From contig OY970150.1 of the NCBI GenBank assembly GCA_963706365.1, positions 1,005,864 through 1,069,863 on the forward strand: a DNA stretch of 64,000 nucleotides. The letters run 5' to 3'. Of this stretch, positions 16,853 to 60,849 are shown piece by piece. Under the pieces are notes generated by a model. The model saw only the letters and a program-made list of their open reading frames with translations. It had not been told where the DNA came from and did not search any database. A program made the translations under genes and the position numbers. This stretch comes from an uncultured Alphaproteobacteria bacterium. Its GTDB lineage: Bacteria > Pseudomonadota > Alphaproteobacteria > JAJTHO01 > G963706365. How positions within the stretch are numbered: the stretch's first letter is position 1; each line of letters opens with the position of its first letter.

Positions 16853-19800
16853 ATGCAAAAAATATCTTCACCGGCGGCCGGACAACAAAAGCAGGTTTAT
16901 GCAGAACCCGGCCAAACCATTGAACTTGATATAGATATTAGCCAAGCCCAGGTTGACATTCTGGGCAGTGATATGATTTTGACCTTACCAAATGGTGGGC
17001 AAATTATTTTATCTGGCATGGCGGTTTCCCTGTTTGAACAAGATGCACCGAACTTAATTGTAGAGGGGCAAACTATTGATCCTAATATTTTATTAGGCCG
17101 CGTTGGATTGGTGCAAAATGTATCGGGTAAAGATGTCGCAATTTTAACCAGCATGCAAACCCCTGCAACAGAAAAAGCCGCGCAGGAAGTTTTGCAACAA
17201 AAATTGCAAAACATCGAAGTAAAGTTACAGGAAGCAGAACAGGCAGCAGAAATTGCGCAGAAGGAAGCCGATTTTAACGAACAATTTAAATTTATGGAGC
17301 CGCCAAAGGAAATTGTTGGCGAAAATATGGTCAGTGCTTCAAAAGGTACCAATGCACCGAGCAATAAAACGCTAGGGAATTTTGAACTGGGCGCGAAAAA
17401 AGTTTTTCAAAAATTTACCAGCAATGCAGAATCAGAAGAATCAATCCAGCAAGCCGCCCCGCCGGTTGATTTTAAACCCCCTGCGGTGCAATCTGAATTA
17501 ATTGTAGAACAAAGTGATGGCGGAACAATTGCTTTTGATACAAAGGTACAAGCGTTGCAAATATCAGCTAGCCAATCCCTTGCGGATAACGGCACCCTAA
17601 CCTTTTTGGGGGGAAGCGGTAGCGAGGCCGCAACCATTGATGGCAGTGCCTTAACACAAATTCAGGCAGAATTTATTGATACCAGCCGCCATAATCGTGA
17701 TGTTGTAATCGTGGCTGATAACAACACTTTTATTGATCAAAATTTGCTATCTAGAGTCATTGAATACGACCCCACTGTGCCAGATGGTTTTGATTTAACG
17801 TCACTGGTTATTAAAGGTATTCCCAACAACTATAATCTTGTGGGTTATACAGCCGATTCCAGCGGTAACTATCGCTTTGATGTCAACACATTATCAGGGG
17901 ATGTAGAAAAATTTATCATTCAATACGACCCCACCGCTTTTGGTAGTGCTGATGCCAATGGTAATGTGCAAACTTTTAATATTACCTTTGATTCTATTGC
18001 GCAAAGTAACGGCAGCGTTGTAGAAGCCGCCTACCCTAGTTTAACGGATTCAATCGTTGTTCCTGTGGCGGTGAAAGATGTTACGGAAAACAATTATACC
18101 TATAACGTTAATGGCGTTACAGGTTGGGTTTTTGATACAAACCCGAATGGCAATATTATTTTAACAGGCGACGGTAATGCAGATGTTACCGGCGGTTTTA
18201 CCAATGACCGTATTACGACTGGTTCCGGTAATGATATAATCAATGCCGGCAAGGGTGATGACTTTGTACGTACCAACAAAGGTGATGATATTATAAACGT
18301 TGGCACCGGTAATAATATTGTGGATGCTGGCGATGGTATTGATACGTTGACCTACAGCGACAGTAACAGCAATGTTAACGTTGACTTGATGAGCCCTGCA
18401 AACAGCGCCGGTTACATTGAATTAACTGTTGGCAGCAACCAAACTGACCAGGTGCGGGAAGTTGAAAATATTACCACTGGCGGTGGTAATGATACAGTAG
18501 CGGGTAATAATAGTAACAACACCTTAAAAACAGGTGCCGGGAATGACACCTTAACAGGCTATCTGGGGAATGATACTTTAGACGGCGGCGCGGGCAGTGA
18601 CACAGTTTCCTATGCCTATCGCGAGACCTATTCCAGCAGCGGTGTTACCGTTAACTTAAACAACAGCACCGTTAATCTTGCCAGTAATGATGTTGATACC
18701 ATTAGCAATATCGAAAACATTATCGGTACACGTTATAATGATACCCTAACAGGTAATTCGCAAAACAACACTTTTACAGCAGGCGCCGGTAATGACACCA
18801 TCGATTTAGGCACGGGTAATGACAGTGTTGATGGTGGCGATGGTATTGATCATCTAAAATTTACACAGCAAACCAGTGGTGTTACTTTAAACTTGCAACA
18901 GGGATCTGGTCAATCAGCCACTGGCGACACATTGACGGTACGTAACATAGAAGAAGTAACTGGCTCAAGTTTCAATGACACTTTAACAGGTGATAATCTA
19001 AACAATACTTTTTACAGCAGTGCTGGCAACGATGCTTATAATGGCAGTGGTGGCACCGATACTTTAAGCTATCAAACAGGCACAGCCGCCATCCAAGCTG
19101 ATTTTTCTGCCGGTACCGTTACAAAAAATAATGGTAATGATACCTTTTCAAATATTGAAACTGTCAAAGCAACCAATTTAAATGATACGCTTATTGGTGG
19201 TGGATCAGTTACTAATATTGATGGTGCTGGCGGCATAGACACTTTGTCTTATCAAACCCAAACAGATGCTGTTACAATTAATTTAAAAGATGGCACCACC
19301 ACGGGTGCTGTTACTCAATCTTTTAGCAACATAGAAAACGCCACGGGCGGTTCTGGCAATGATACTTTGCTAGGAAACAGTGGGAATAATATTCTGGCGG
19401 GTGGCGCTGGTATTGATACGGTTAGTTATGCCAATGCAACAAATGCGGTAAATGCCAGCTTACTGAGCAACAGTTCAACAGGATATGGTAATGATACATT
19501 TTCAAGTATGGAAATATTAATTGGCTCAAACTTTAGTGACCAATTAGAAGGAAATGCCGGCAATGACGAAGTCATTGGTGGCGGCGGTAACGATACTATT
19601 TTCTCTACCACCGGTAATGATATTATTGATGGTGGAACGGGTTACAACACCATATCCTATGTCAATTCTACCGATACGATTACCAGTATTGATTATACAA
19701 CGGTTGCAAGCACAGGCTATGTAACCATTAACTTTGTTTCTGGAAAATATGACCTGGTGCGTAATGTTGAACTTTATAAAGGTTCAGCCGGTAACGACGA

Positions 19801-22800
19801 AGTTGTTGGCGGCGGTGGCAGTGGTGCGGGTTTAGGAACAAATCCGGGATCTGGCGGCGGGTCAGGAGGTGGCAGTGGCGGAGGCGTTGTAACCATTGAT
19901 GGAGGAGATGGTACGGATAAAATAATTTTTGCTGCTGAAACCGCTGTTGTTGTTGTTGATTTACAAAACGGTACAGCCACAGGTTCCTTTGGTACTTATA
20001 ACTTTACTAGTTTTGAAAGTGTTGTCGGTGGTGTGAATAATGACACCCTAATTGGTAGTACAGCGGACAATATTATTGAAGCTAATGACGGAGACGATAC
20101 TGTAATTGGCACCACAGGTAATGATACCTTGGATGGAGGCAATGGCAATGATATCGTGGACTATAGTAATTTAACCAGCGGTATAACAGCTTCTTCTACC
20201 AGTGTTACGGGTAGTGGCTTTACCGATACTTTAAGTAATTTCGAAACCGTTATTACCACAGATTATGACGATGTTATTAACGATGATAGCGCCAGTACTG
20301 TTTATGAAACAGGCGATGGCAATGATACTATTAATGCCAATTCCGGCACCGACAGCTTTGATGGTGGAACCGGCACGAATAAGCTAAGTTACACAAGCCA
20401 TAGTAACAGTAGTGCAGGCATTAACGCAGATATGTCTGTGCGCGACGGTAACAGCTTTTTCAACATCACTATAGGTGGCGAAACAGACAAAGCAAAAAAT
20501 ATCCAGATTCTTGAAGGTAGCACAGGCAACGATATTTTAACCGGCGATAATAACGCCAATACCTTGCTGGGTGCCGGTGGTGATGACATTCTAAATGGTG
20601 GTGGCGGTAATGATACGCTGGATGGTGGCGATGGTAATGATACTGTAAGTTTTTCCGGTGCCTCTAGTGGCGTTAACCTTAACATGAACATTGTTGACGC
20701 TAATGGTTTTGCCAATGCAACAGTGGGCAGCGAAACAGATAAATTAAAAAGTATCGAAATTATTAATGGCTCCAGTTTTGATGATATTATCACCGGTGGC
20801 AGCAGTAATGATACAATATCAGGGGGTTCTGGTAATGATATTCTGGATGGCGGTGCAGGCCTAGATACAATTAACGGCGGTGGTGGCTATGATACAGCAA
20901 CGTATGTATCCCTATCACAAGGTGTTAGTGTTGCTGGCAGTGTGGTTACCGATAATGACGGTAATGTGGAAACATTAATTAATATTAATGCCATCAGGGG
21001 AACGAACGCTGGCGATACATTTATTGGCACCAGTGGTAACGATATTTATGGTGGCCTAGGTGGCAACGATACTTTCACCGCAACCAATGGTAATGATAGC
21101 TATGATGGTGGCGCCGATACAGATACTGTTACTTATGTTAACAGCAGCGAAAACCTGAACATTAGTTTACGTACAGGTTCTGCAACCGGCACACTATTGG
21201 GAACACATACCTTAACAAGCATTGAAAATGTTACGGGTGGTTCTGGTAATGATACAATAGAGGGCGGTGTTGGCGCCAATATTTTAAATGGTGGTGCGGG
21301 CAGCAATACATTGAGTTACGCCAATGCCATTGCTGGTGTTAGTATTGATTTAACAGCCAATACAGCCATTGATGATGGCGGTGCCACAGATACCATCAGT
21401 AATTTTACCAGTTTAAATGCTTCTGGCTTTAATGACACCTTAAAAGGCAGCACCGGTAGTGATACCCTAAATGCCGGCGCCGGTAATGATACGATAATTT
21501 CTAGCACAGGTAACGACACCATTGACGGTGAAGCCGGTAACGATAGCCTGTCTTATGCAGCCACATCAACGGCTATTAATGTTAACTTATCTAGCGTAAA
21601 CGGCAGTGGTTTTGCCACTATTACGCAGAATACCAAAACAGATTTGGTGAAAAACATTCAAACATTTACCGGTTCCACCGCGGGTGACACTTTTATAGGT
21701 TCCAGCACCGCTGATATTTTCTATGGTGGTAGTGGTGCTGATACCTTCAGTGGCCGGGGTGGTAATGATATATTTGAAGGGGGCAATGATACAGATACGG
21801 CTGATTACGCTTATTCTGCTAATGCCATTACGGTTGATCTAACCAATCTGGTTGGTGGCTATGGGCAAGTTAGCTTTGCTTCCAGCAGCGAGGTGGACAG
21901 CCTTAATAGTATAGAAAATATTATCGGTACTGCCGGTAATGATACGTTTACCGGTGGCGCTGGTGCTAATAACATTAATGGTGGTGGCGGTAACGATACT
22001 TTTTATGGCGATGCTGGCAACGATTCCCTTGATGGGAACACTGGTAGTGATACTGTTGACTTTAGTGCCAATAGCACAGCTGTAAATGTTACATTAAACA
22101 GCCAGTCTGCCACCGCACAAACCATTACTTCTGGTTATGGCACCGACAGTATTCGCTATATTGAAAATATTACCACAGGCGGCGGTAATGATACCATTGA
22201 TACGCGCAATGATGCCGGTAATAACACCATTGTTACTAATGGTGGCAATGATACCATTTATGCCGGTGCGGGCAGCGATAGCTTAGATGCCGGTAGTGGC
22301 ACGAACACTTTACGTTTTGACGGTATGGCCAGCGCTGTGGTTCTGGATTTATCCACTTTGAATGGCAGTGGTTTTGCCACTGCAACTTCTGGCGCAAATA
22401 GCAGCCTGGTAAAAGGTTTTGGCACCGTTTACGGCAGTTCCAATGGCGATAATATTACCGGCACAAGTGGCAATGATATACTTTATGGCCAGGATGGTTC
22501 CGACACGCTTACAGGTGGCGCAGGCGATGATCTGATTATTGACCGCAATACAACCTATGCCACCAATAACACCAACATTATTAACGCCGGTGACGGTAAT
22601 GATACGGTAGAGGCCTACGTTAATGGCAGCACCATAGACGGTGGCAATCAAACCGATATTTTAACCTATAATGCTGGTAGTGGCACAAGCTCTAACCTAA
22701 CAGTGAACCTTACAGCAGAAACAGTTACAAATGGTGTTTATACCGACAATATCTCTAATTTTGAAGAAATTCGAACCAGCAATGGTAATGACAGTTTCAT

Positions 22801-23647
22801 TGGTGATGCCAATGGTCAATCATTCTATGGGAATGCCGGTAACGATACATTCCGGGGCTTAGGAGGAAATGACTTCTTCTATGGCGGTAATGATACAGAT
22901 ACCGTTAGCTATATAGACGCAGGCAGCGGTGTTACAGCTAATTTAACAACCAATACTGCCAGCGATGGTGATGGCGGAACCGATACATTTAACAGCATAG
23001 AATCATTAACGGGTTCTAACTATGATGATTTGTTAACGGGCAATGTGGGGGGCAACACGTTGTCTGGCGGAACCGGTAATGATACCCTTGTAGGCACCGC
23101 CGGGAATGATACCCTGAATGGTGGAACAGGCACCGATGATACAATAGATTATACTGCCCAAACCAGTGCGGTTAATATAGATCTAGCCACCAACAACGCC
23201 AGTGGTGCAGGCATTGATACCGATACCTTCTTGAATATTGATCGTATTAATACAGGTTCTGGCAACGATAGTTTAACAGGTGACGCGGCAACATTATTCG
23301 CCAGCACCCTAAAATTAAACTTTGCCACAGGAAACGACACTGTTACAGCCACCAGTGGTACTGTTGGTACAGATGCGGGGGTTCTTGATACGTTATACGA
23401 CAACGTGGAAACCCTAAACTTTCTTGGCGCCAATACCAACAGCGGCAACTTTGTTATTGATGGCGACGAAGTTGTTGGCCTAACAGATTCTAACAATGCC
23501 TTGCGGTTAGATGTAAACAGCTTATTCGGTTTAACCGTTAATGGCGGTAGTTATACCGTTTCATCGTCTACGACAGGCAACCATACTGTTTATGAATTTA
23601 ATACCGGTGTAACACAAGTGGCACAGTTGGACGTCTATGTTACCTAG
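16853..23647 (+). CDS. Giant RTX-repeat (hemolysin-type Ca-binding nonapeptide) secreted protein/adhesin, T1SS substrate
   Basis: About 2265 aa. No signal peptide. Dozens of GGxGNDTLxG-type nonapeptide repeats throughout, and an acidic C-terminus ending ...AQLDVYVT. The ATG at 16853 is preferred over the TTG at 16844 used by the ORF track. Immediately followed by T1SS export genes. Confidence 0.85.
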   Translation: MQKISSPAAGQQKQVYAEPGQTIELDIDISQAQVDILGSDMILTLPNGGQIILSGMAVSLFEQDAPNLIVEGQTIDPNILLGRVGLVQNVSGKDVAILTSMQTPATEKAAQEVLQQKLQNIEVKLQEAEQAAEIAQKEADFNEQFKFMEPPKEIVGENMVSASKGTNAPSNKTLGNFELGAKKVFQKFTSNAESEESIQQAAPPVDFKPPAVQSELIVEQSDGGTIAFDTKVQALQISASQSLADNGTLTFLGGSGSEAATIDGSALTQIQAEFIDTSRHNRDVVIVADNNTFIDQNLLSRVIEYDPTVPDGFDLTSLVIKGIPNNYNLVGYTADSSGNYRFDVNTLSGDVEKFIIQYDPTAFGSADANGNVQTFNITFDSIAQSNGSVVEAAYPSLTDSIVVPVAVKDVTENNYTYNVNGVTGWVFDTNPNGNIILTGDGNADVTGGFTNDRITTGSGNDIINAGKGDDFVRTNKGDDIINVGTGNNIVDAGDGIDTLTYSDSNSNVNVDLMSPANSAGYIELTVGSNQTDQVREVENITTGGGNDTVAGNNSNNTLKTGAGNDTLTGYLGNDTLDGGAGSDTVSYAYRETYSSSGVTVNLNNSTVNLASNDVDTISNIENIIGTRYNDTLTGNSQNNTFTAGAGNDTIDLGTGNDSVDGGDGIDHLKFTQQTSGVTLNLQQGSGQSATGDTLTVRNIEEVTGSSFNDTLTGDNLNNTFYSSAGNDAYNGSGGTDTLSYQTGTAAIQADFSAGTVTKNNGNDTFSNIETVKATNLNDTLIGGGSVTNIDGAGGIDTLSYQTQTDAVTINLKDGTTTGAVTQSFSNIENATGGSGNDTLLGNSGNNILAGGAGIDTVSYANATNAVNASLLSNSSTGYGNDTFSSMEILIGSNFSDQLEGNAGNDEVIGGGGNDTIFSTTGNDIIDGGTGYNTISYVNSTDTITSIDYTTVASTGYVTINFVSGKYDLVRNVELYKGSAGNDEVVGGGGSGAGLGTNPGSGGGSGGGSGGGVVTIDGGDGTDKIIFAAETAVVVVDLQNGTATGSFGTYNFTSFESVVGGVNNDTLIGSTADNIIEANDGDDTVIGTTGNDTLDGGNGNDIVDYSNLTSGITASSTSVTGSGFTDTLSNFETVITTDYDDVINDDSASTVYETGDGNDTINANSGTDSFDGGTGTNKLSYTSHSNSSAGINADMSVRDGNSFFNITIGGETDKAKNIQILEGSTGNDILTGDNNANTLLGAGGDDILNGGGGNDTLDGGDGNDTVSFSGASSGVNLNMNIVDANGFANATVGSETDKLKSIEIINGSSFDDIITGGSSNDTISGGSGNDILDGGAGLDTINGGGGYDTATYVSLSQGVSVAGSVVTDNDGNVETLININAIRGTNAGDTFIGTSGNDIYGGLGGNDTFTATNGNDSYDGGADTDTVTYVNSSENLNISLRTGSATGTLLGTHTLTSIENVTGGSGNDTIEGGVGANILNGGAGSNTLSYANAIAGVSIDLTANTAIDDGGATDTISNFTSLNASGFNDTLKGSTGSDTLNAGAGNDTIISSTGNDTIDGEAGNDSLSYAATSTAINVNLSSVNGSGFATITQNTKTDLVKNIQTFTGSTAGDTFIGSSTADIFYGGSGADTFSGRGGNDIFEGGNDTDTADYAYSANAITVDLTNLVGGYGQVSFASSSEVDSLNSIENIIGTAGNDTFTGGAGANNINGGGGNDTFYGDAGNDSLDGNTGSDTVDFSANSTAVNVTLNSQSATAQTITSGYGTDSIRYIENITTGGGNDTIDTRNDAGNNTIVTNGGNDTIYAGAGSDSLDAGSGTNTLRFDGMASAVVLDLSTLNGSGFATATSGANSSLVKGFGTVYGSSNGDNITGTSGNDILYGQDGSDTLTGGAGDDLIIDRNTTYATNNTNIINAGDGNDTVEAYVNGSTIDGGNQTDILTYNAGSGTSSNLTVNLTAETVTNGVYTDNISNFEEIRTSNGNDSFIGDANGQSFYGNAGNDTFRGLGGNDFFYGGNDTDTVSYIDAGSGVTANLTTNTASDGDGGTDTFNSIESLTGSNYDDLLTGNVGGNTLSGGTGNDTLVGTAGNDTLNGGTGTDDTIDYTAQTSAVNIDLATNNASGAGIDTDTFLNIDRINTGSGNDSLTGDAATLFASTLKLNFATGNDTVTATSGTVGTDAGVLDTLYDNVETLNFLGANTNSGNFVIDGDEVVGLTDSNNALRLDVNSLFGLTVNGGSYTVSSSTTGNHTVYEFNTGVTQVAQLDVYVT

Positions 23648-23719
23648 GCATATCCTGATAGCGACAGGTTTATAAAAATTTAATCTTATCGCACCATACT
23701 GCACCTTAGAGAGCGTAAA

Positions 23720-25096
23720 ATGGTGCAAAACAACTATAATAACAAGCAACGCACGTTACAAACTGGTCAAATTGGCTGGTATGTGCCGCATAAAATGTGG
23801 GTCACACTGGTGGCCTTTTTCAGTTTATCTTTTGTTATGCGTGAGGATCTGATTGAAAGATTTCAATCGCATGTCAGTTTGAACGGCCTTATTTTAACCA
23901 CCATGATGGTTGTTGTGGTTATGGCTTTTAACAACATCTTCCATGTGCAACGCGCCGCCAACCTTTTAAAACGTATAGAAAACTTTGAAGATAATCCTGC
24001 TGCACAGGTGCAGGGGAAACTGGTTAAGGAATTACGTGGTAGTTATATTGATAACTATTATTTCCAGCAGCGCTTATCCAATTATGAAATTGGTAAAGAT
24101 GAATTTGTAAAGTTTGATGACAAGCAGGCAATGCTAATTAAATCGAAAGTTGGTTTTCGGTCTAATAACATGCGTAACACGGTGCAATACCTAGCAGGTG
24201 TTTTGGTTATGCTGGGCTTGATTGGTACGTTCTGGGGTTTGCTTGAAACCATTACAGCCGTTGGTCAAGCTATGGGAAGCTTAACGGGTGATTTGAATGA
24301 AGAAGGCAGCATGGAATCTTTCCTTGCAGCCATTAGTAAACCTTTGCAAGGTATGGGGGTTGCCTTTAGTGCCTCACTATTCGGGCTGTCCGGCTCTTTA
24401 TTAGGTGGTCTGCTAAACAGTTTTTGCGGTAAGGGAATGAACGACTTTATCGAACATTTTGGTATCTGGATAGATACCCGCATTCCGCAAGTACAACAAA
24501 AACCAAAAGCAGAATTAAACCCGGCAGAATTAATTGAACAACACAATAAAACCGTGGTGGCCGCCCTGGAAGATGTTCTAACCGGCCTACGCAAACAGTC
24601 ACAAACCATGTTTGTACAGTTAACAGAAGTTATGACGGAATTTTCCAGATTTTCGCAGCAGCAACAAACCGCCCTATCGGTGATTAGTAATGAAAGCAAA
24701 GTAAATGTGCGCTTGGCTGATAGCATGGAACAAGCCGTATTTGGCCTGAAACAAGAAGCACAATTAATACGAGAAAGAGTCGTTTCGCTGCCAGAAATTC
24801 ACCAATCTTTAGGCAATGATGTGCGCCATGTCGCCAATATTATTGCCGATTCGCAAGACAGTATTAGCCAGCATATTGTTAACAGCAGTGTAGATAGCAA
24901 TAAAACCCGCACCACCTTAAATAGCTTGCTGGAATCCTATGCCGCCATGGTTTCCTTAATGGAAAGACTCATTCAGCAAGACAAACTGGAAAAGCAAGCA
25001 CCAGAAACCACCAGCCAGATTATTATGGAAATGCAACAGGTGTTAAAACAACAGCTGGATGCGGCCAATCAACCGATTTCTTTAAAGGTGGGTTAA
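23720..25096 (+). CDS. MotA/TolQ/ExbB-family proton-channel protein with a ~200-aa coiled-coil cytoplasmic tail (SiiB-like)
   Basis: 458 aa. Four predicted TM helices; TM3/TM4 carry the family signature (LAGVLVMLGLIGTFWGLLETI...GVAFSASLFGLSGSLLGGL). A long Q/E/K-rich C-terminal tail. The stop overlaps the next gene start (TAAAATG). Confidence 0.65.
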   Translation: MVQNNYNNKQRTLQTGQIGWYVPHKMWVTLVAFFSLSFVMREDLIERFQSHVSLNGLILTTMMVVVVMAFNNIFHVQRAANLLKRIENFEDNPAAQVQGKLVKELRGSYIDNYYFQQRLSNYEIGKDEFVKFDDKQAMLIKSKVGFRSNNMRNTVQYLAGVLVMLGLIGTFWGLLETITAVGQAMGSLTGDLNEEGSMESFLAAISKPLQGMGVAFSASLFGLSGSLLGGLLNSFCGKGMNDFIEHFGIWIDTRIPQVQQKPKAELNPAELIEQHNKTVVAALEDVLTGLRKQSQTMFVQLTEVMTEFSRFSQQQQTALSVISNESKVNVRLADSMEQAVFGLKQEAQLIRERVVSLPEIHQSLGNDVRHVANIIADSQDSISQHIVNSSVDSNKTRTTLNSLLESYAAMVSLMERLIQQDKLEKQAPETTSQIIMEMQQVLKQQLDAANQPISLKVG

Positions 25097-25097
25097 A

Positions 25098-25676
25098 ATG
25101 TCAGACGATCCCGAAAGCACGATCCCCTGGCCTGGTTTTGTGGATATTCTTTCCACCGTTATCATCGTGTTCGTTTTCTTTATGATGATGACGTCAACCA
25201 TCATTTTCTTGATGGCGCAAAAACAGCAAGAAAAAGCTGTTTCAGATGCTAAGCAAGAGGTTATTGAAGACATAAACAATGTTGATATCAAACAGGTATT
25301 ACTGGAAAATAGTCAGCTTAAAAAACAAGTTGAAGATATGGTTCGGGTAAAATCTATTTTAGGGGAGTCAGAATCACAAATTGTTTCAAAGCAAGAAAAC
25401 GGCGTTAAAATTACTTTTAATGATTTTGGCGTAACGTTATTGCCCGAAACAACAGAATCTATAAAATCTTATTTAAGCAATGTAAGAAAAGTACAGTTAC
25501 AAGCTTATGTGCCGCAAAATTATGCAGCCACCCGGGAAATCGCCCTGAACCGTGCTTTGAACGTGCGAAATTTACTAATTCAGGCAGGTTTAAAACCAGA
25601 AAATGTGGAACTGAAAATTTTGACAGACACCACCGGAAACGAGGGAGCATATGGCCATATTCTCCTTTCATATTAG
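25098..25676 (+). CDS. MotB/TolR-like single-pass membrane protein with C-terminal OmpA-like region (SiiA-like)
   Basis: 192 aa. N-terminal TM (PGFVDILSTVIIVFVFFMMMTSTIIF). The C-terminus (REIALNRALNVRNLLIQAGLKPENV) resembles the end of OmpA/MotB peptidoglycan-binding domains. Overlaps the TolC start by 26 nt. Confidence 0.5.
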   Translation: MSDDPESTIPWPGFVDILSTVIIVFVFFMMMTSTIIFLMAQKQQEKAVSDAKQEVIEDINNVDIKQVLLENSQLKKQVEDMVRVKSILGESESQIVSKQENGVKITFNDFGVTLLPETTESIKSYLSNVRKVQLQAYVPQNYAATREIALNRALNVRNLLIQAGLKPENVELKILTDTTGNEGAYGHILLSY

Positions 25677-27027
25677 AACCGCTTTCTTATCACTGGCTAT
25701 TGCTCAAAATGCCCAGGCGCTTTCCTTACACGAAGTGATAGAGCGTGCTATTATTAACAGCCCAGAGCGCAGCATTGCCGCCGCGCAAATTGCCCAGGCC
25801 GAAGCCACCGTAGCAGAAGAGAAATCAGGTTATAAGCCACAAGTTAATGCCAAAGCCGATATTGGCCGCGAATATAATGATCGTTTTGCCCTAAGGCAGG
25901 GTGCCGTTGAAGCCAGTGGTTACAACACTGGTAAAAGCGCCAGTTTAAACATTAGGCAAATGCTGTTTGATGGTTACACAACCAAACAAACCGTTGCCAG
26001 ACGTTTAGCACAGGTAAAAGCCTCAACTTTCAACCAGAATAAAATTACAGAAGAACTGATTAACAGCACGATTGAAATTTATATGCAGCTGTATCAGTTT
26101 CAGCGAACCGTTATTGCCGCAAAAGAAAATTTAGTAACCCTAAAAACCATTGCTGATATTGTTAATACCCGTTTTGAAGAAGGGGACACAACAGAAGCTG
26201 AAAAAAACTATATAAAATCACGCGTTGCCAATGCACAGCAAGAATTAATTAATGCTGAAGCAGCTTTGGCGGATTCTAAAAGCGCTCTGGTTTTTCTGAT
26301 TGGCGATGTAGAACCTTTCGATGCCGCATTGCCTATTCTAAGTAATTTGGCAACTTTTCTACGCAATACCGATAACGATATATTCGTTAAACAGGCCTTT
26401 AATAATAACAGCGAGCTAAAAGTAAATACAGCTGAGTTAAAAGCCGCAAGATATGACATGGATAGCTCAAAAGGCGCTTACTACCCTAATCTGGATTTTG
26501 TTGTAAATGGTAGCCGTGCTGACGACCAAGGTGGTGACACCGGCAAAGCTGAAAGCGCCAGTGCCAAACTGGAGTTAACCTATACGTTATTTGATGGTGG
26601 ATTACGCGCCGCAACCCTGGACAGAAAGCTAGCCAAAATTAAAGAGGTACGATCACGGCAAGTACAATTGCGCCGCGAAATCAAACAACAAGTAGAACAA
26701 ACCATGAACCAGCTGCAAAGCAGCAGCCAGGAAATTCTATCAGTTATGGAAGAAGGCGAAGCCAACAAACGGCTGGAAGAGGTTTATATCGAACAATTTC
26801 AGTATGGCGATGGTGATGTGGATATCATTAACTTAGTAGAGGCGAGAGAACGGATTTTTTCTGCCAAGGTAAAAAAGTTTCGATTGGCATCTGAAGTAGT
26901 GAATGCCCATTACACGGCCAATCGTTTGACAGGCTTGCTATTGCCAGAATTCTGCACTTTGTCTTGTGATAGTACTGCAAGACCCCTAACGCCTGTGGAT
27001 ACAGAGAAAAATAGCGATGGAACATAA
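25651..27027 (+). CDS. TolC-family outer-membrane efflux/secretion channel
   Basis: 458 aa with signal peptide (AFLSLAIAQNAQA) and a two-repeat OEP architecture rich in alpha-helical/coiled-coil segments. Overlaps the downstream ABC gene by 11 nt. Confidence 0.8.
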   Translation: MAIFSFHIRTAFLSLAIAQNAQALSLHEVIERAIINSPERSIAAAQIAQAEATVAEEKSGYKPQVNAKADIGREYNDRFALRQGAVEASGYNTGKSASLNIRQMLFDGYTTKQTVARRLAQVKASTFNQNKITEELINSTIEIYMQLYQFQRTVIAAKENLVTLKTIADIVNTRFEEGDTTEAEKNYIKSRVANAQQELINAEAALADSKSALVFLIGDVEPFDAALPILSNLATFLRNTDNDIFVKQAFNNNSELKVNTAELKAARYDMDSSKGAYYPNLDFVVNGSRADDQGGDTGKAESASAKLELTYTLFDGGLRAATLDRKLAKIKEVRSRQVQLRREIKQQVEQTMNQLQSSSQEILSVMEEGEANKRLEEVYIEQFQYGDGDVDIINLVEARERIFSAKVKKFRLASEVVNAHYTANRLTGLLLPEFCTLSCDSTARPLTPVDTEKNSDGT

Positions 27028-28663
27028 AGATGCTTTTTTCTTAAAGGAGGCGCTGCAGATTCCTAGAACATTGTTGCGCGATATTCTTATAACCAGCCTG
27101 TTTCTAAATTTGCTAGCTGTTGCCCTGCCGTTATTTACCCGCGTAGTTTACGACAAAGTTATTCCCAATTTTGCCATCGAAACCCTGTGGGTATTGTTTT
27201 CCGGCATGGCCATGGTCTTGGTATTTGACAGCCTATTTAAGGCTAGCCGTAATTATATCATTCAGCATATTTCCAGCAAAACCCTGCAAGAATTAGAACA
27301 GCCGTTTATGACGCACCTGTTAAAAATACCAGCGCAACATAATCTGGCCAAAACAAATTACCATTTAAACAGCTTGCAAGAAATTTGCCGCTATCGGTTT
27401 CAATTACTAATTCCGGCAACTGTTGATATTCCTTTTGTACTGGTCTTTTTGCTAATCATTTATCTTATCTGCCCACCCATGGCGTTGGTGCCTTTGGGGG
27501 TTGGCCTTTCATTAATTGCCCTGCAAATAGCGTTTCATCATAAATTAAACAAGGCACTGGTTCATAGCCAGGAAGCCACAGAAGAACGATTGCAAACGGT
27601 TGCTGATCTTCTGCAAGGTCGTCAAACCATTCGGCAACTAGCCCACTATACGCCTTTTATCAATGATTGGAAAACAGCCAGCAGCAGAGCCGCAATTAAC
27701 AACAGCAGAATGACTTTTCTATACCAAATGGTGATGAGCCTTTCACAAAGTTGCTTGCTGTTTAACACGGTGTTGTTAATGATGGTCGGTGTTTATCAGG
27801 TGCAGGCCTCAACATTAAGTATTGGTGGGTTGCTGGCCATCAGCTTGCTAAGTGCCCGTATTTTAACGCCACTAATGTCGATTGGTGAATTATTAGCCAA
27901 ACGTCCAAAAATTCTTATGGAATTAAAACACATCAATCAGGTGATGCAAATTCCTGACGAAGGCACTGGGGCAGCTATTGCCTTTGCACCAAAACTTACC
28001 CTAACAAATGCAACCGTTGATCCTATTTTAAAAAATTGTAACTTTAGTTTACAAGCAAAAGAAAAATTGGCAATTGTAGGCAGCAGTGGTGCAGGCAAAA
28101 CCACATTATTACAAATATTATCCAAAGAGCGCACCCTTTCTTCCGGCAGTGTTTTATGGGATGATCGCAAGGACATTGCACCCGCCCATTTACGCCAACA
28201 AATGGGTATTGTTGAACAACACCCTTATTTTTTTGGACGTAGTGTGCGCGATAATTTATGCCTTGAACATCAATATGCCGATGCGGAACTTTTTAAAACA
28301 CTCGATTTGGTTGGCTTAACCACTTTTATAAAAGCCACCGGGCATGGGCTGGATTTAATGCTGGATAACGGCGGGCATAACCTTTCTGGCGGCCAGCGGC
28401 AATGCCTGGCATTGGCACGTGCCCTATTAAGACAACCTGATATTTTGTTGATGGACGAACCCACCAGCATGATGGATCATCAAATGGAACTGCAACTGGT
28501 ACAAAATTTGCGTTTTGCTTTAAAAAATAAAACAGTTGTCCTTGTTACCCACCGCACGCCGCTGCTCTCCCTAGTAGATAAAATTCTGGTTTTGGAAAAC
28601 GGGCAAGTACAGCAATTTGGCGATAAAAACACCATCCTAAATCAGCAGGCCAAGCATGGATAA
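27017..28663 (+). CDS. Type I secretion ABC transporter (HlyB-like permease/ATPase, no C39 peptidase domain)
   Basis: 548 aa. N-terminal 6-TM domain plus NBD with Walker A GSSGAGKTT, signature LSGGQRQCLALARAL, and Walker B ILLMDEPTS. Confidence 0.85.
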   Translation: MEHKDAFFLKEALQIPRTLLRDILITSLFLNLLAVALPLFTRVVYDKVIPNFAIETLWVLFSGMAMVLVFDSLFKASRNYIIQHISSKTLQELEQPFMTHLLKIPAQHNLAKTNYHLNSLQEICRYRFQLLIPATVDIPFVLVFLLIIYLICPPMALVPLGVGLSLIALQIAFHHKLNKALVHSQEATEERLQTVADLLQGRQTIRQLAHYTPFINDWKTASSRAAINNSRMTFLYQMVMSLSQSCLLFNTVLLMMVGVYQVQASTLSIGGLLAISLLSARILTPLMSIGELLAKRPKILMELKHINQVMQIPDEGTGAAIAFAPKLTLTNATVDPILKNCNFSLQAKEKLAIVGSSGAGKTTLLQILSKERTLSSGSVLWDDRKDIAPAHLRQQMGIVEQHPYFFGRSVRDNLCLEHQYADAELFKTLDLVGLTTFIKATGHGLDLMLDNGGHNLSGGQRQCLALARALLRQPDILLMDEPTSMMDHQMELQLVQNLRFALKNKTVVLVTHRTPLLSLVDKILVLENGQVQQFGDKNTILNQQAKHG

Positions 28664-29877
28664 ATTCTGGTTAAAAGCTAATTACCTGGCAGGTTTTGTT
28701 GTCATTTTACTTATTGCATGGGCAGCATGGGCAGAAGTACATACCGCGGTGCACGGCACTGGCCGTACTGTTTCAGCCGGTGAGAACAAGCAAATTCAAC
28801 ACCTGGAAGGTGGTATTATTGCCGATATTCTAGTGCAAGAAGGCCAGAAAGTCAGCACTGGCCAACCACTGTTTCGTATTCGTAATGAAAATAATACAGC
28901 GACATTAGAAGAAAATAAATTAAAGCTTCAAAGTTTGGAAAACCGACGCATTCCGCCTGCTAGCCGAGGCAGAAAACAAAAAGCCAGAATTTCCGATAGA
29001 AGCCGCCACCGAGCAATTATTATACGATAGCCGCAAACAACAACAAGCCCAAGAACTTCGTATCTTAACCCAGCAAATTCAGCAAAAAAGAAGTATTCTA
29101 TCAGAACAAACCACTCGCATTCGTAATTTACAACAAGAACTTTCTACGGCCACCAGCCAGCTCAATATTGTTAAACGCCTAGTTGAAAAAGGTGCTGCTT
29201 CGCAAAATAGAATGTTAGATATGCAAGCGCGTGTTAATAGCCTCAATACAGACATAAGCGGCACAAGACGCCGCATTCCCACTACTCAAGCAGAATTAAG
29301 TGAGGCACAAGGGCGCTTAAATGCGGCGAAAGCAGAGCAAAAAAATGCTATTTTAGAGGAATTGCGCCAGACCAAACTGGAAATTACCCAACTGCAAGAA
29401 CGCTTGAAAGCCAACAATGACGTTGTCTTACGTACCGAATTATTGTCGCCCGTAGACGGTATTCTGCAACGCCTGCACGTTCACACGATTGGTGGCACCG
29501 TTCGCCCCGGCGAACTATTAGCAGAAATTACCCCTAGTAATGATAACCTGATAATTGAGGCTCGCATTGACCCGAAAGACCGTGCGCATGTGTGGTATGG
29601 CCAAAAAGCCAATATTACTGTCACTGCCTTTAACTATATGAAATATGGCACACTACAGGCCAAAGTGCTGGAAATTAGTGCGGATAGTATTGAAGATAAT
29701 TCCAATCAACCGCCCTATTACCGCGTCAAACTGATTCTTGATACCGCCGACAGTCAATACACTATACTTCCCGGCATGGTTACAGAGGTGCACTTACTTG
29801 CTGAAAAAAGGACAGTTCTGCAATATTTACTAGACCCTGTATTGCGAACAAAACGTAATGCGTTTCGCTCTTTGTAA
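28656..29877 (+). CDS. HlyD-family T1SS periplasmic adaptor, reading frame broken once (~28950)
   Basis: ORFs 28656..29030 and 29212..29877 are joined by a -1 frame segment (RIRLLAEAENKKPEFPIEAATEQLLYDSRKQQQAQELRILTQQIQ...) after attCCgcctgc. N-terminal TM plus coiled-coil and the C-terminal HlyD beta-domain are all present. Confidence 0.8.
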
Positions 29878-39251: not shown

Positions 39252-41342
39252 TTAACCAGCTAATTCCGCGCGCTCGGCAAAAAAGCTATTAACCAGATTT
39301 CCGTAATGTTCACCGGTTACACCTTCAACTTGTTGAATAAATAGAGACATCCTACTTGCCTTTTCTTGCTCAGAAGCGGTTAAAGCCAAGGTCAATGCCT
39401 CTGGCACATCAGCGGTGCTATTGCAATTAAACATGCCATCTTTGTAGGCCTCAGCCATTCCCATACCAGGCTCAACACTTACAATAGCCTTGTTCAGAAA
39501 CTCTTTCATGGGATCAAAAGGTAGAATAACCTGATGATCTGACATTTTTCTGACTGTGGCAGCAAGAGAAGTAACAGCCAATTGACCGTAGGCACCAATT
39601 TCTCTTAAATCAAGTTCAAAAGGATACGCTCTTTCTTCTGCCTGGCTGAAATGTACCTGATATGCGCTTTCTCCCTGCATTTTAGCTACGACAGCCCTAT
39701 GCATAAAATCTATAAAATCAGCCTGCACTGCTTCGGCTGCATCCTGATGGTATCCGAAAACATTACCCACAGCCATGGCTTCTAGTGCTTGCAGGCCAAA
39801 ACCTTCTTGCGTATTTTCGGCAACGGTCTGCAAAAACACATCCGCCTGCGTCATGAATTTTGCGTAATTACCAGGGTCATACGATTGGCCAATTCTAAGA
39901 TAAACTTTATCCTGAACCTCTTCCGGCAATGAATTATAATAGTCCTGTATTTCCTGCTGATATTCAGGCTGCCCTGGCGTTTTCAATCGGGTAGAGCCCA
40001 GTAAAACAAGAAAATTTGTGTCATCCCCTAATCCATGTGGGTTTTCTTCAATAAATCTTACAATTTGTTTCAAAGAATTTAGAGGATCTTTATAGGGAAC
40101 CGCGCGGCCACCAGTATAAACCAGTTTTTTACCGGATTCTTTTGTTTCATCAATGAATTTTTGGACATCTTCAACGGCTTCGTCAGCACTATTAGCTTCT
40201 AAAACCAAGCGTCTTTTAGTTTGAGAATTAATACCTCTTTGAATCGTTAAAACGTATTGATTATCATTTGGTGGAATACCAAGGAATGCACAGTTTTGTC
40301 TATAGTATTTAGCTTTAATACCCTTAGTAATGCTACCATCTTCTTTTTCTTCCTCTCCGATATGGAATGTTGGCAGATCATATCGCGCCATATCTTGATA
40401 TACACCATGAATGAGGGGATGGTTATAAAAAGATTGACCTCCTGTAGGAGTTGTTATGCTATAATCTGATGCTTCAAAAGGCATCTGCCCTGAATGCCAA
40501 TCAATATATGATTCAACCTTAGTATCTGTTAGGCTTTGATAATCTACTCTATCTTTGCCGCCTAAAACGACCTGATCCAGCGCACAAACTCTGATAGAAT
40601 CTAACTCTAATTCCTGTTCATTAATAAGTTCGAACAGTTTTACAGTTGCTTCGTCATAACGATCAAACGCCTGGTCATGCCCGGCTTTAACAACATTTAA
40701 CATCTCCCATTCTGTAAGCGGCATTCCTGCTAAAGATTTCATATAAGCTTGTTGAACTGATAACAGAGAAGCCTTTTCCGACTCATCCGGCAACTGATTC
40801 CGATTACGTAATACCATCTCCATAATCTGAATCTCAGTACTGCTCAAGCTTGCAGGATTTGCTTCTGCTAAATCACTAAATTCTTTTGTAAGCCCTGCAA
40901 CACGCTCTGGTAACAACTCATTATGCGTAGCACTCCATATAATTGTGTCAGAGCCATACCTTGCCAAACAATCAAACTGAAATTGCGTCATAGGGAAGTT
41001 AATGAAAACTACTTTTTCACCTGACTTATTGGTGTCAAAGGTAATATTTAGAGAAGGTTTTCCCTCTATATTTTCAGAAACTTTCGGTGTCAGGAAAATT
41101 TGAACACCATTATACTTTGCTTCTTCTGAAAGGGTTAATACGCCACCGGTTCTTTGGGCAAGATCAACAACATCTTTTACCTCTTGCTGATTAAGTGCTT
41201 GACCACTCAATGTCTTTTTATAAATATTTATAAGAATATTTTTTACGTCAGAGCCAAGCAATTCTTTAAGGTGCTCACTATTTTTCAAAAATTCTTCCCG
41301 CTCTTGATCGTGATCAGTTGTAGACACAGCAGCAGTCGCCAT
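39252..41342 (-). CDS. Large hypothetical protein with C-terminal GT-B (GT4-like) glycosyltransferase domain
   Basis: 696 aa with no signal peptide or TM. The C-terminal ~200 aa match the GT4 C-domain pattern (LVYTGGRAVPYKD...ADVFLQTVAENTQEGFGLQALEAMAVGNVFG). The N-terminal ~450 aa have no motif I recognise. Confidence 0.5.
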   Translation of the reverse strand: MATAAVSTTDHDQEREEFLKNSEHLKELLGSDVKNILINIYKKTLSGQALNQQEVKDVVDLAQRTGGVLTLSEEAKYNGVQIFLTPKVSENIEGKPSLNITFDTNKSGEKVVFINFPMTQFQFDCLARYGSDTIIWSATHNELLPERVAGLTKEFSDLAEANPASLSSTEIQIMEMVLRNRNQLPDESEKASLLSVQQAYMKSLAGMPLTEWEMLNVVKAGHDQAFDRYDEATVKLFELINEQELELDSIRVCALDQVVLGGKDRVDYQSLTDTKVESYIDWHSGQMPFEASDYSITTPTGGQSFYNHPLIHGVYQDMARYDLPTFHIGEEEKEDGSITKGIKAKYYRQNCAFLGIPPNDNQYVLTIQRGINSQTKRRLVLEANSADEAVEDVQKFIDETKESGKKLVYTGGRAVPYKDPLNSLKQIVRFIEENPHGLGDDTNFLVLLGSTRLKTPGQPEYQQEIQDYYNSLPEEVQDKVYLRIGQSYDPGNYAKFMTQADVFLQTVAENTQEGFGLQALEAMAVGNVFGYHQDAAEAVQADFIDFMHRAVVAKMQGESAYQVHFSQAEERAYPFELDLREIGAYGQLAVTSLAATVRKMSDHQVILPFDPMKEFLNKAIVSVEPGMGMAEAYKDGMFNCNSTADVPEALTLALTASEQEKASRMSLFIQQVEGVTGEHYGNLVNSFFAERAELAG

Positions 41343-56659: not shown

Positions 56660-57541
56660 ATGATCCAAGTTTGTATTAATCCGTATCGTACTGTTATTGC
56701 CGTAAACGGCATTGGCGGTGCCAAATTCTTGCAAGGGTTAATGACCAACGACATTTATTTACTCGATCATCAACCCTGCATTTATGCCTGCTTCCTGACG
56801 GCACAGGGGAAATTTCTGCATGATTTTCATATTTTCAAACAAGGGAACAGTTATTTTTTAACGCCGGAGAAAAAACGCGCGGCTGATTTGGTCAAGCGCC
56901 TAAAAATGTATAAGCTAAGAGCCGCTGTTGATATTCAAAATATTGACTATTTGAATGTTTTTCATTTTCTACAAGGTGATCCGTCTAACCTTTTACCGCC
57001 AGATAGCTTGCTCTCTGCTGATCCACGTCATGAAGATTTAGGATACCTGGCCTTATTAAGTGAAAACGCCGTCGAAAATTTAAAAAGCCGTCAGGATGGT
57101 ATGGGCGCAGCTGTTGACAGCCATTTAAAAGAACAGCAATTAGAGGAAATAGCCTTTGATTTGTGGGACACACAACGCATTCAAGCCAAGGTGCCTGATG
57201 GCAGCCGTGATATGATGCCCGAAAAAGCTATCTTATTGGAATATGGGCTGGATAATTTGAACGCTATTTCTTATGAAAAAGGTTGTTATTTGGGGCAAGA
57301 ACTAACCGCCAGAACCCATTATCGCGGTATTGTTCGCAAAGGTTTGGAAATTGTAACAGGTGATAATTTACCGGAAACAGGCATACCGCTTTTTAATAAA
57401 GAAAATGAAAAATCTGTTGCTACAATGGCATCCTCCTGTAAGGAAATTGGATTAGTACTGATAAAACAGGAAGAAAATACAAATAAATTTCCGTTATTTA
57501 CAGAAAACCGTGAGGAAGAAATTAATCTTTTACACAAATAA
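56660..57541 (+). CDS. ygfZ: YgfZ/CAF17-family folate-binding Fe-S cluster repair protein
   Basis: 293 aa. GcvT-like fold with the diagnostic KGCYLGQE motif (SYEKGCYLGQELTARTHYRG). Confidence 0.75.
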   Translation: MIQVCINPYRTVIAVNGIGGAKFLQGLMTNDIYLLDHQPCIYACFLTAQGKFLHDFHIFKQGNSYFLTPEKKRAADLVKRLKMYKLRAAVDIQNIDYLNVFHFLQGDPSNLLPPDSLLSADPRHEDLGYLALLSENAVENLKSRQDGMGAAVDSHLKEQQLEEIAFDLWDTQRIQAKVPDGSRDMMPEKAILLEYGLDNLNAISYEKGCYLGQELTARTHYRGIVRKGLEIVTGDNLPETGIPLFNKENEKSVATMASSCKEIGLVLIKQEENTNKFPLFTENREEEINLLHK

Positions 57542-59298: not shown

Positions 59299-60849
59299 AT
59301 GTATATTTTAAACCGTACTTTTCTTTTCGCCCTTCCCATTATTTTCCTAACGGCTTGTGGGGATGACGCCCCACCTGAGCAAAAAAAGGCTGATAATGCC
59401 GATGTTGACCGGGAGCTGATTGATTTAATCAATCGCACCCAGCCGCCTGAAATTAAGGAGGCTAATTTAATAGCAACACCCGCAACGCTTTCTTTTTCAA
59501 CTATTCGGGTTGGCGACGAATTAAATCTTCCTATTGTTTTAACAAACGATGGGGACAAGCCTTTGACCATTGAAGATGTGCGCCTGGCCAGTGAAGAAGA
59601 TGTTTTCAGCTTGGAAAATCAATGTCGCCCAGGGCAAGTATTGGAAGAAGGCAAGAAAATCTGTCGTATTAATGTAACTTTTGTTCCCGGCCAGCCTAGA
59701 CAATATAAAACAACTGTTATTATTACCCACACAGCACCGGAAAGCCCGATGCTGATAGAATTAATGGGTAATGGTGAAGAGCCGCCCGCACCAGAACAGC
59801 AAGTTTATATTCCACCCGCAGCCCCTGCCCCGCCATCACCGTTATGGTTAAACTCTCAACGTTTGCAACAGCAACGGGGTACTGGAACTTTAAAAGTATT
59901 ACAAACCGGTGTTGACTTAGGCGACGTACCCTATACATCCACCAGCCCAGGTTATGGAGAACTTGGTTTTCCAGCCACCGAATCAACGTTGCCTGTTAAC
60001 CGCACACGCATGATAACGATGGATCGCTATATTCCTGCCGTGTTGGAAAGCACTATTAACTCTCAGTTAAGTGGCGGACGTGCCGTAGGCGTTATTGAAA
60101 CGAATGTTTACAGTGCAGAAGGCCGTAATATTCTGATTCCGGCTGGCTCACGGATGACAGGCACCTATCAATCTCTAACCCAGCAGGGTAACACCCGTTT
60201 AGGTGTTGTATGGTCTCGTCTTATTCGCCCAGATGGTGTTGGCATTAACCTATTAAACGCCCCTTCCATGGATGTTATGGGGCGGATGGGTTTAATTGGC
60301 CAGTTGGATAACCGCTACTTTGACCGGTTTGCCTTGCCATTGCTCATTAGTACATTGGGTATCGCAGCCAACTACGCCGCCAGTGATGGCACCGTTGTAA
60401 CGCGTGGCTTTGGTGATTTAGGCAGCGATATTTTCAGCACGGTTCGTGTGGAAGAAATTAGTAGAGAAGAATTCGCCGCCCGACAATTTGCCGATGAACT
60501 GTTAAAAATCTCTGCCCAGCTTATTAAGGAAAATATTGATATTCGCCCGGTTATTACGGTGCCTGCCGGTACACGCTTTAATGTGATTCCGACGCAAGAT
60601 ATTATTTTGAGAAAACCAACACAAATGGTAGGATTGGCTAACCAGAATAATCTTGCAGCGCGTGCTTCTGAACTGATTCGAACCATTCAACGAGGTGAAA
60701 ACAGTGAAACCGCCGTACGTTTAGCAGAAATTTTAGGAAGTGTTGCCGAAGCCGGCGCACAAAACGAGCAAAACGCTTTAAGTGGCCCTTATTCTTCACC
60801 AGCTTTAGGCGCAGGCGCACAAAATTTTGGCCCCCCTGCACTACAGTAA
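59299..60849 (+). CDS. virB10: VirB10/TrbI-family T4SS protein with atypical N-terminus: lipoprotein signal plus Ig-like (ASH/choice-of-anchor-D-like) domain plus Pro-rich linker
   Basis: 516 aa. Signal peptide ending in lipobox LTAC. Residues ~60-150 match the ASH-type Ig pattern (LSFSTIRVGDELNLPIVLTNDGDKPLTIEDV...CRPGQVLEEGKKICRINVTFVPGQPRQYKTTV). Pro-rich segment PPAPEQQVYIPPAAPAPPSP. The C-terminal ~250 aa match the VirB10/TrbI domain (GRAVGVIETNVYSAEGRNILIPAGSRMTGTY...VVWSRLIRPDGVGINL). Confidence 0.7.
   Translation: MYILNRTFLFALPIIFLTACGDDAPPEQKKADNADVDRELIDLINRTQPPEIKEANLIATPATLSFSTIRVGDELNLPIVLTNDGDKPLTIEDVRLASEEDVFSLENQCRPGQVLEEGKKICRINVTFVPGQPRQYKTTVIITHTAPESPMLIELMGNGEEPPAPEQQVYIPPAAPAPPSPLWLNSQRLQQQRGTGTLKVLQTGVDLGDVPYTSTSPGYGELGFPATESTLPVNRTRMITMDRYIPAVLESTINSQLSGGRAVGVIETNVYSAEGRNILIPAGSRMTGTYQSLTQQGNTRLGVVWSRLIRPDGVGINLLNAPSMDVMGRMGLIGQLDNRYFDRFALPLLISTLGIAANYAASDGTVVTRGFGDLGSDIFSTVRVEEISREEFAARQFADELLKISAQLIKENIDIRPVITVPAGTRFNVIPTQDIILRKPTQMVGLANQNNLAARASELIRTIQRGENSETAVRLAEILGSVAEAGAQNEQNALSGPYSSPALGAGAQNFGPPALQ

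Follow-up and report, generated by a model that had tools for sequence, protein, structure and literature searches.

The locus considered here raises two questions: what kind of glycosyltransferase (GT) is encoded by a 2091-nt gene (39252–41342, minus strand) of an uncultured alphaproteobacterium, and whether its product functions in the bacterial cytoplasm or within a eukaryotic host. The gene lies in a stretch of 64,000 nucleotides ("the window") from NCBI GenBank assembly GCA_963706365.1 (contig OY970150.1, positions 1,005,864 to 1,069,863, forward strand). An earlier note on this DNA described the 696-aa product, here designated P0001, as a cytoplasmic protein with a novel N-terminal region and a GT4-like C-terminal domain, and proposed it as a secreted effector. 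The whole of P0001 is, in our estimation, likely to be a single retaining-type GT of GT-B fold that belongs to a previously unsampled family, to which the GT20 enzymes are nearest; its probable closest relatives are trehalose-6-phosphate synthase (OtsA/TPS) and the pseudo-glycosyltransferases VldE/ValL. As judged from the alignments described below, P0001 does not consist of a novel module joined to a GT domain.

Probable relationship of the full-length protein to GT20 enzymes

The gene is a complete ATG-to-stop open reading frame (ORF) of 696 codons in the ORF listing, and a sequence identical to P0001 is on record in both the NCBI contig (1,867,446 bp) and the Logan run ERR12040027. The protein contains no hydrophobic segment (highest Kyte–Doolittle 19-residue mean, 0.85) and has an isoelectric point of 4.7, with an acidic, charged, and hydrophilic N-terminus. 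Because of the low hydropathy maximum and the charged N-terminus, P0001 is apparently soluble and shows no sign of a membrane helix or of a Sec-type leader, in agreement with the earlier description. The sole Pfam match is Glycos_transf_1 (PF00534; aa 399–526, 28.8 bits against a cut-off of 26.4), which together with an E-x7-E motif bears out the original assignment as a GT and the GT-B C-domain pattern recognised at that time. NCBIfam yielded GT4 fragments below threshold and nothing more, and scans of PADLOC and PHROGs gave sub-threshold GT4-like fragments or nothing. An anti-phage role of the "GT4-conflict" type was considered and rejected (PF20706, 16.6 bits, below the cut-off of 26).

P0001 has one detectable relative. 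When 5.8 billion protein clusters were searched by word index, P0001 itself and a second protein, P0002 (640 aa; 36% identical to P0001 over 93% of length), were returned, and an exhaustive HMMER search of 1.84 billion cluster representatives with a two-sequence profile retrieved these two only. No further members were found when GTDB genomes, JGI metagenomes, and IMG/VR were scanned by pattern, nor by tblastn of PLSDB plasmids or of 80 gyrA loci together with the window. The two proteins align over their whole length, with conserved blocks also outside the C-terminus; P0002 alone does not reach the PF00534 cut-off. P0002 likewise derives from ERR12040027, where it is encoded on a 3350-bp contig (L002) that is present in the Logan record only and absent from the NCBI assembly. 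Its gene is flanked by the 5' end of a MobA/MobL relaxase gene (3153–3350, plus strand; E=1.7e-19), located downstream, and by a gene for a 163-aa protein (385–876, plus strand) that has hydrophobic and coiled-coil-like segments. Because of the relaxase neighbour and the Logan-only record, the P0002 gene probably belongs to a mobilisable element separate from the deposited chromosome, and the contig itself suggests a small mobilisable plasmid.

Scans of aa 1–400 against standard libraries gave no family match, and no GT4 N-domain Pfam model matched P0001 even at E-values up to 10. To this extent the N-terminal portion is devoid of recognisable motifs, as the earlier note had stated for the first ~450 aa; but the GT-B C-domain already begins near aa 400, and the region preceding it aligns to the GT20 N-domain in profile–profile comparison. 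Comparison by hhalign with single Escherichia coli sequences was non-discriminating (24.2 for OtsA vs. 20.8 for a membrane-protein negative control), and for this reason multi-sequence profiles were built locally from annotated plasmid and E. coli records: a GT20 profile of 14 sequences (E. coli OtsA and 13 plasmid-borne trehalose-6-phosphate synthases, 32–65% identity), a GT5 profile of seven GlgA sequences, and a GT4 profile of six E. coli paralogues. Against the GT20 profile, the native P0001/P0002 family profile scores 31.6 (z ~5–6), with query residues 57–695 aligned to OtsA residues 12–459. The corresponding column-shuffle null is 17.0±2.5, and the observed score is reached in none of 60 shuffles; the reversed query scores 17.8. 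The signal is present in the N-terminal region taken by itself: aa 30–160 score 30.1–30.8 against GT20 (z=5.3–7.8), and are at null level against GT5 (10.3) and GT4 (12.2–12.5; z −0.7 to 0.2). The null score of this region against the GT5 profile led to rejection of a by-eye reading of "TGG" and "THN" as glycogen-synthase (GT5) motifs. The C-terminal half scores similarly against GT20 (31.7) and GT4 (29.9; z=8.5), because the donor domain is common to both.

Two inserts interrupt this alignment. In GT-B topology the strand KAIVSVEPGMGMAE (aa 618–631) would normally follow the helix that carries the E-x7-E motif; in P0001 it is situated ~90 residues away from that helix, for which reason an interruption of the C-domain was suspected. 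With aa 528–617 excised, PF00534 scores 37 bits instead of 28.8 (E=3.2e-9; profile positions 8–157 of 172), and a match to the GT20 model PF00982 emerges at 22.1 bits (E=7.3e-5; profile positions 252–464 of 473). On the basis of this rise in score, a putative insert of ~90 residues (insert 2; 39492–39761) is placed after the E-x7-E helix and before the strand that follows it; this insert is partly conserved in P0002 (YPFE-DL-GAY), and its counterpart in OtsA is ~8 residues long. A profile of the two excised C-domains, compared with the PDB, has fungal Tps1 (5hvm) as the sole glycosyltransferase among its weak matches (E=0.2). Insert 1 (aa 157–205; 40728–40874) is helical, absent from OtsA, and largely absent from P0002, where it corresponds to a 44-residue gap; it is skipped in the hhalign alignments. 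With both inserts removed, the comparison with GT20 reaches a probability of 81.6% and a score of 49.9 (P=1.1e-5, z=9.4), the alignment again running from query aa 57 to the C-terminus and covering OtsA 12–459; the scores for GT4 and GT5 are 34.4 and 27.5, respectively. The same procedure applied between established families gives 43.6 for GT20–GT4, 31.9 for GT20–GT5, and 102.7 for GT5–GT4. Because the scores of the query against GT20 are comparable to those of GT20 against GT4 and GT5, the P0001/P0002 family appears to be separated from GT20 by approximately one inter-family (CAZy-like) distance.

The predicted architecture is therefore that of one GT-B fold. It begins with an N-terminal extension (aa 1–34; 41241–41342) that is predicted to be helical, has no counterpart in OtsA, and shows 10–15% identity to P0002; a helix at aa 8–29 is present in both of the low-confidence AlphaFold2 (AF2) models, and the alignment with OtsA starts only at aa 57. 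The acceptor-side half, GT20-like by hhalign, would comprise aa 35–400 (40143–41240), and the C-terminal Rossmann half aa 401–696 (39255–40142), the latter broken by insert 2 and delimited from PF00534, the sub-cut-off PF00982 match, and AF2 confidence over aa 390–500. The "novel N-terminal region" is better described as the acceptor-side half of a single GT-B fold, GT20-like in character, with a variable helical insert. A minor independent pointer to GT20 is provided by Foldseek with the unbiased low-confidence AF2 model, for which the top 50 PDB matches are mostly GT20 enzymes (VldE, ValL, and TPS, with VldE/ValL at the top), at weak E-values of 6e-3 to 4e-2 and over 93–130 aligned columns. 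Foldseek matches of a second model, seeded with OtsA sequences (OtsA, VldE, and TPS; E ~1e-8, TM-score 0.2–0.3), were discounted as biased by the seeding.

Donor-site and acceptor-site residues

In OtsA, UDP-glucose is bound by Gly22, Asp130, His154, Arg262, Lys267, Asp361, and Glu369, and glucose-6-phosphate by Arg9, Trp40, Tyr76, Trp85, and Arg300 (PMC1769515; PMC3441724). P0001 was mapped onto this enzyme with anchors agreed by three procedures (hhalign against OtsA alone, hhalign against the GT20 profile, and MAFFT). The glycine loop T65-G66-G67 (41142–41150), which is invariant in P0002, corresponds to OtsA Gly21–Gly22 in all three. The most confident block in the hhalign alignments is SDTIIWSATHNE (aa 131–142; 40917–40952), which by both hhalign and MAFFT matches the GT20 motif SN-x2-LWP-x-FHY and places W136 at OtsA Trp85; in context, VVFINFP...SDTIIWSATHNE lies on ITWASFN...SNAVLWPAFHY. 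By hhalign, D256 and H283 (40494–40577) are the putative equivalents of donor-site residues Asp130 and His154, Y321-D322-L323 matches the YDL that precedes LGFQ, and QRGIN (aa 368–372; 40227–40241; invariant in P0002) matches the P-x-GI-D/E motif that marks the end of the GT20 N-domain.

In the C-terminal half, hhalign places R413-x4-K418 (40089–40106) at Arg262 and Lys267, which bind the phosphates of the nucleoside diphosphate (NDP). S450-T451-R452 (39987–39995; invariant in P0002) corresponds to the GT20 "PSR" motif by hhalign and MAFFT, so that R452 would be the equivalent of Arg300, which contacts the acceptor phosphate. The E-x7-E motif (E513-GFGLQAL-E521; 39780–39806), recovered by hhalign, MAFFT, and Pfam, aligns as EGFGLQALE on OtsA DGMNLVAKE, and thereby matches Asp361, Leu365, and Glu369; Asp361 is replaced by glutamate (E513), as in GT4 enzymes. 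At the C-terminus, ALTASEQEKASR aligns by hhalign on ALTMSLAERISR, in keeping with a terminal helix of the form ALT-x-S-x2-E-(K/R)-x-S-R that P0001 has in common with GT20 synthases.

The aligned donor set is thus retained as G67, D256, H283, R413, K418, E513, and E521, all of which are invariant in P0002. Of the five acceptor-site residues, two are retained (W136 for Trp85 and R452 for Arg300); the Tyr76 position is alanine in P0001 and threonine in P0002, nothing corresponds to Trp40, and the alignment does not cover the region of Arg9. Catalytic competence, as well as the class of donor and acceptor, we infer by homology with OtsA. Because all aligned donor-site residues are conserved in two proteins that are 36% identical, an active enzyme is favoured over a relic. 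An NDP-sugar would be held by the C-terminal half through R413, K418, E513, L517, and E521, with the donor site completed from the N-terminal half by G67, D256, and H283; the sugar would be passed to an acceptor situated in the inter-domain cleft, its configuration being retained, and by default this reaction would take place in the bacterial cytoplasm. Given that the Trp85 and Arg300 equivalents are kept and Arg9, Trp40, and Tyr76 are lost, the acceptor is most likely a small molecule that is phosphorylated, or anionic in some other way, and is distinct from glucose-6-phosphate.

A precedent for such a change is offered by VldE/ValL (4F9F, 3T5T), in which the GT20 fold and the nucleotide-binding residues are kept, as they appear to be in P0001, and the substrate has shifted to a non-trehalose one; the conservation of these residues has been described (PMC3441724). 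Unlike P0001, VldE/ValL are encoded in actinomycete antibiotic biosynthetic clusters and still score as GT20 members; the window contains no cluster of this kind.

Weight of the assignment and alternative explanations

Several observations weigh against a GT20-related GT-B fold for the whole protein. The query profile used for hhalign consists of two sequences only (P0001 and P0002), and GT-B topology partly guided the choice of boundaries for the excised inserts, so that the score of 49.9 may be inflated. The gathering cut-off of PF00982 (32.5 bits) is missed, with no match for the native sequence and the above-mentioned 22.1 bits for the insert-free one, and this model is blind to the N-terminal region of P0001. 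No significant match came from PDB sequence searches, whether the query was the full protein, the C-domain, or either of two family profiles. The AF2 model from the two-sequence alignment has a mean predicted local distance difference test (pLDDT) score of 34; addition of twelve OtsA rows raises the mean to 47, and only aa 390–500 are then modelled with confidence (pLDDT 77–89), such that the Rossmann topology proposed for the N-terminal half is drawn from the alignment only. The register of D256/H283 is also ambiguous: MAFFT places D281/H308 at the same OtsA positions, and all four of these residues are invariant in P0002.

The earlier note had held that clear homology of the whole protein to a housekeeping enzyme would count against an effector. 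A likeness to GT20 does extend from end to end, but it is remote, and the PF00982 cut-off is missed; on these grounds, and given the GT20–GT4-like distance, P0001 does not appear to be a housekeeping OtsA orthologue. With OtsA (1GZ5/1UQT) and fungal Tps1 (5HVM), P0001 has in common a profile alignment that is colinear throughout (query 57–696 vs. OtsA 12–459), equivalents of Gly22, Asp130, His154, Arg262, Lys267, Arg300, Asp361 (as Glu), Leu365, and Glu369 of OtsA, and the blocks characteristic of GT20 synthases (GG loop, SN-x2-LWP-x-FH, YDL, and P-x-GI-D). Unlike these enzymes, P0001 falls below the family cut-off, lacks Arg9, Trp40, and Tyr76, has two inserts and a 34-aa N-terminal extension, and has no otsB nearby. 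The designation "GT4-like" is too narrow, with GT20 being the best full-length relative: P0001 resembles GT4 enzymes in passing PF00534 (the sole curated model that it passes) and in its E-x7-E and R-x4-K motifs, but its N-domain is without similarity to theirs, the hhalign scores being at the null level noted above.

The foremost alternative concerns the place of action, and is compatible with the biochemistry proposed for a GT20-related enzyme. P0001 might be recognised by VirD4 and sent through a VirB-type type IV secretion system (T4SS) into a eukaryotic host cell, which we consider unlikely; similarly unlikely is the corresponding activity, by which the protein would make a sugar-phosphate signal or glycosylate a host molecule within that cell, in the manner of RipTPS. 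Genes for VirB10 (138 bits against the VirB10 domain model of NCBIfam), VirB11 (202 bits), and the coupling protein VirD4 (T4SS-DNA_transf, 198 bits; encoded from 62086) are present from 59299 to the end of the window. Domain scans thereby support the genomic context given originally, namely a type I secretion system (T1SS) substrate gene on one side of the gene, gyrA on the other (41468–44095, divergent from the P0001 gene), and a T4SS in the window. Delivery to a host would also be consistent with a soluble protein that lacks a Sec signal, with a family of two members that both come from one sequencing run and one of which is encoded beside a relaxase gene, and with a GC content at third codon positions (GC3) that is lower than in housekeeping neighbours (0.31 for the P0001 gene vs. 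0.43–0.45 for gyrA, tolB, and uvrB). Against delivery, P0001 has no recognisable translocation signal and no BID or other effector domain in the Pfam scan, and its last 20–50 residues are net acidic (K+R 1–3, D+E 3–7) and not conserved in P0002, with the reservation that T4SS translocation signals vary by system (basic/hydrophobic tail, BID domain, or E-block) and that one used in this lineage may differ. Between the gene and the T4SS genes lie 18 kb that include housekeeping genes, and the argument from a novel N-terminal domain no longer applies, that region being part of the catalytic fold.

The lifestyle of the source bacterium bears on the same question. The earlier note referred to host-associated bacteria, a trait that the window itself does not show. 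No GTDB representative corresponds to the source. Host association is plausible in view of the small chromosome and the VirB/D4 system; the GyrA sequence of the source has at best 61–62% identity to known sequences, however, and these nearest sequences are from freshwater metagenome-assembled genomes (MAGs) labelled "Alphaproteobacteria bacterium", which argues against delivery to a host.

Secreted GT-B enzymes have precedents. RipTPS is a type III effector of Ralstonia solanacearum that has a GT20 domain and makes trehalose-6-phosphate in plant cells (PMC4278537). It resembles P0001 in being of GT20 type, in having extra sequence relative to OtsA, and in coming from a bacterium with a host-directed secretion system. 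Unlike P0001, RipTPS clearly belongs to GT20, its trehalose-6-phosphate synthase activity is proven, and it has a defined N-terminal domain for targeting to the T3SS (type III secretion system); the system in the window is a T4SS rather than a T3SS, no signal was identified in P0001, and its sequence is far more divergent. The GT5 enzyme GlgA of Chlamydia trachomatis is secreted to the inclusion lumen and the host cytosol (PMC3722199; PMC4829429). It is a soluble GT-B enzyme, as P0001 is predicted to be, and is exported without a Sec signal from an intracellular bacterium; unlike P0001, it is an ordinary and recognisable glycogen synthase, and P0001 scores lowest against GT5 (27.5). A fuller form of the delivery proposal is improbable: that P0001 founds a GT20-derived GT-B family delivered by T4SS to a eukaryotic host from an alphaproteobacterial symbiont, where it would make a non-trehalose sugar-phosphate. 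It is likewise improbable that, as part of such delivery, the two inserts would confer a new acceptor specificity or host targeting.

It is also doubtful that P0001 is the bacterium's own fast-evolving trehalose-6-phosphate synthase, or a similar synthase for a compatible solute, that appears to be an orphan due to poor sampling of the lineage. The end-to-end similarity to GT20, the retained donor residues, and the retained Arg300 equivalent are all compatible with this explanation, but three of the five glucose-6-phosphate binders (Arg9, Trp40, and Tyr76) have no conserved counterpart, and there is no OtsB-type phosphatase near the gene. The only haloacid dehalogenase (HAD) gene in the neighbourhood was considered as an OtsB partner and rejected, as it encodes SerB (211 bits vs. 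a cut-off of 144). Poor sampling would also have to be reconciled with a GyrA that is easily recognised in the same genome (61% to MAG homologues) when P0001 is below the family threshold, and an osmolyte synthase with a second copy beside a relaxase gene and with two large inserts.

The same-strand neighbour of the P0001 gene (35774–39139, minus strand) encodes a 1121-aa protein with eight Calx-beta domains and C-terminal RTX repeats (Pfam), and the two genes are possibly co-transcribed, being separated by 112 bp with no terminator-like site predicted. HMW1C and TibC are enzymes that glycosylate partner adhesins, and P0001 might by analogy glycosylate the Calx-beta/RTX protein before its export by a T1SS. 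Beyond the shared strand, the short gap, and the lack of a predicted terminator, the evidence makes this very improbable: P0002 is accompanied by a 163-aa protein and mobA, and by no Calx-beta gene; Pfam and NCBIfam scans show no likeness to GT41 or heptosyltransferase families that modify adhesins; and the adjacent T1SS membrane-fusion gene appears to be split. As is established for the family (PMC1769515), GT20-type enzymes use acceptors that are small and phosphorylated, not proteins.

It is scarcely credible that P0001 is the decaying remnant of a GT, or that it serves structurally or in regulation as a pseudoenzyme: the extreme divergence, large inserts, and marginal Pfam score would fit a relic, but the 2091-nt frame is intact, and the donor-site residues and all motif blocks are kept in two copies at 36% identity, from which we infer purifying selection on the active site.

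Genomic neighbourhood and significance

A GT20-related enzyme that is restricted to two known sequences is probably encoded by an accessory, horizontally mobile gene, as indicated by the relaxase gene beside P0002, the low GC3 of the P0001 gene, the two-member distribution, and the absence of an OtsB-type partner nearby. Low-GC3, lineage-specific genes occur on both sides of gyrA. A 655-aa protein is encoded at 44779–46746 (minus strand); its aa 6–243 resemble TauD/gamma-butyrobetaine dioxygenase (sub-threshold in NCBIfam), the ~400 C-terminal residues have no family match, and the GC3 of its gene (0.26) is the minimum for the neighbourhood. An adjoining 137-aa ORF (44285–44698, plus strand) has no family match. 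Close to uvrB, a DDE transposase of insertion sequence type (49201–49959, plus strand; DDE_Tnp_1 and DUF772) overlaps a 164-aa antisense ORF without a family.

A second RTX protein and T1SS components are encoded at 16844–29877. The RTX protein (16844–23647, plus strand) is 2267 aa in length, with RTX nonapeptide repeats in 20 matched stretches, and directly downstream of its gene are encoded a 458-aa protein without a family, an OmpA-like protein, a TolC-like outer-membrane factor, and an ABC exporter. The HlyD-type membrane-fusion gene is split into an ORF of 124 aa with an N-terminal membrane anchor (28656–29030, plus strand) and one of 221 aa that matches HlyD_3 (29212–29877, plus strand); this is either a frameshift or pseudogene that would disable this T1SS, or an assembly error. 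The virB10-virB11-virD4 genes directly follow secE-nusG, and the 500-bp gap that precedes them contains neither virB8 nor virB9; the VirB10/TrbI homologue (59299–60849, plus strand) has an extra N-terminal Ig-like domain of "choice-of-anchor D"/HYDIN type at aa 54–159.

Elsewhere in the window, a glycine riboswitch (8840–8922, plus strand; 55 bits) precedes a gcvT-like ORF (9193–9864, plus strand) that covers GCV_T positions 55–255 only, and 47 kb from it is a second, weakly GCV_T-related ORF (56660–57541, plus strand); the T protein of glycine cleavage may be fragmented or have a mis-assigned start. A CorA-like ORF of 205 aa (1003–1620, minus strand; profile positions 104–292 of 292) is possibly truncated, or has a mis-called start.

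Among ~15 billion predicted proteins there are just two sequences of the family to which P0001 belongs, one of which adjoins a relaxase gene, and annotation of P0001 as a "GT4 family glycosyltransferase" would mislead. The gene is accessory and restricted to its lineage, and the bacterium that carries it has both a T1SS and a T4SS, which makes the gene a reasonable but unproven candidate for host interaction. RipTPS provides a concrete model against which P0001 can be tested; if T4SS delivery were true, P0001 would be a T4SS counterpart of this Ralstonia effector outside plants. If P0001 is active, it would represent a new sequence family of the GT-B superfamily, close to GT20, in which the donor site has been kept, the acceptor site remodelled, and two inserts gained, and it would be useful for the study of substrate change among GT20 enzymes, as VldE was.

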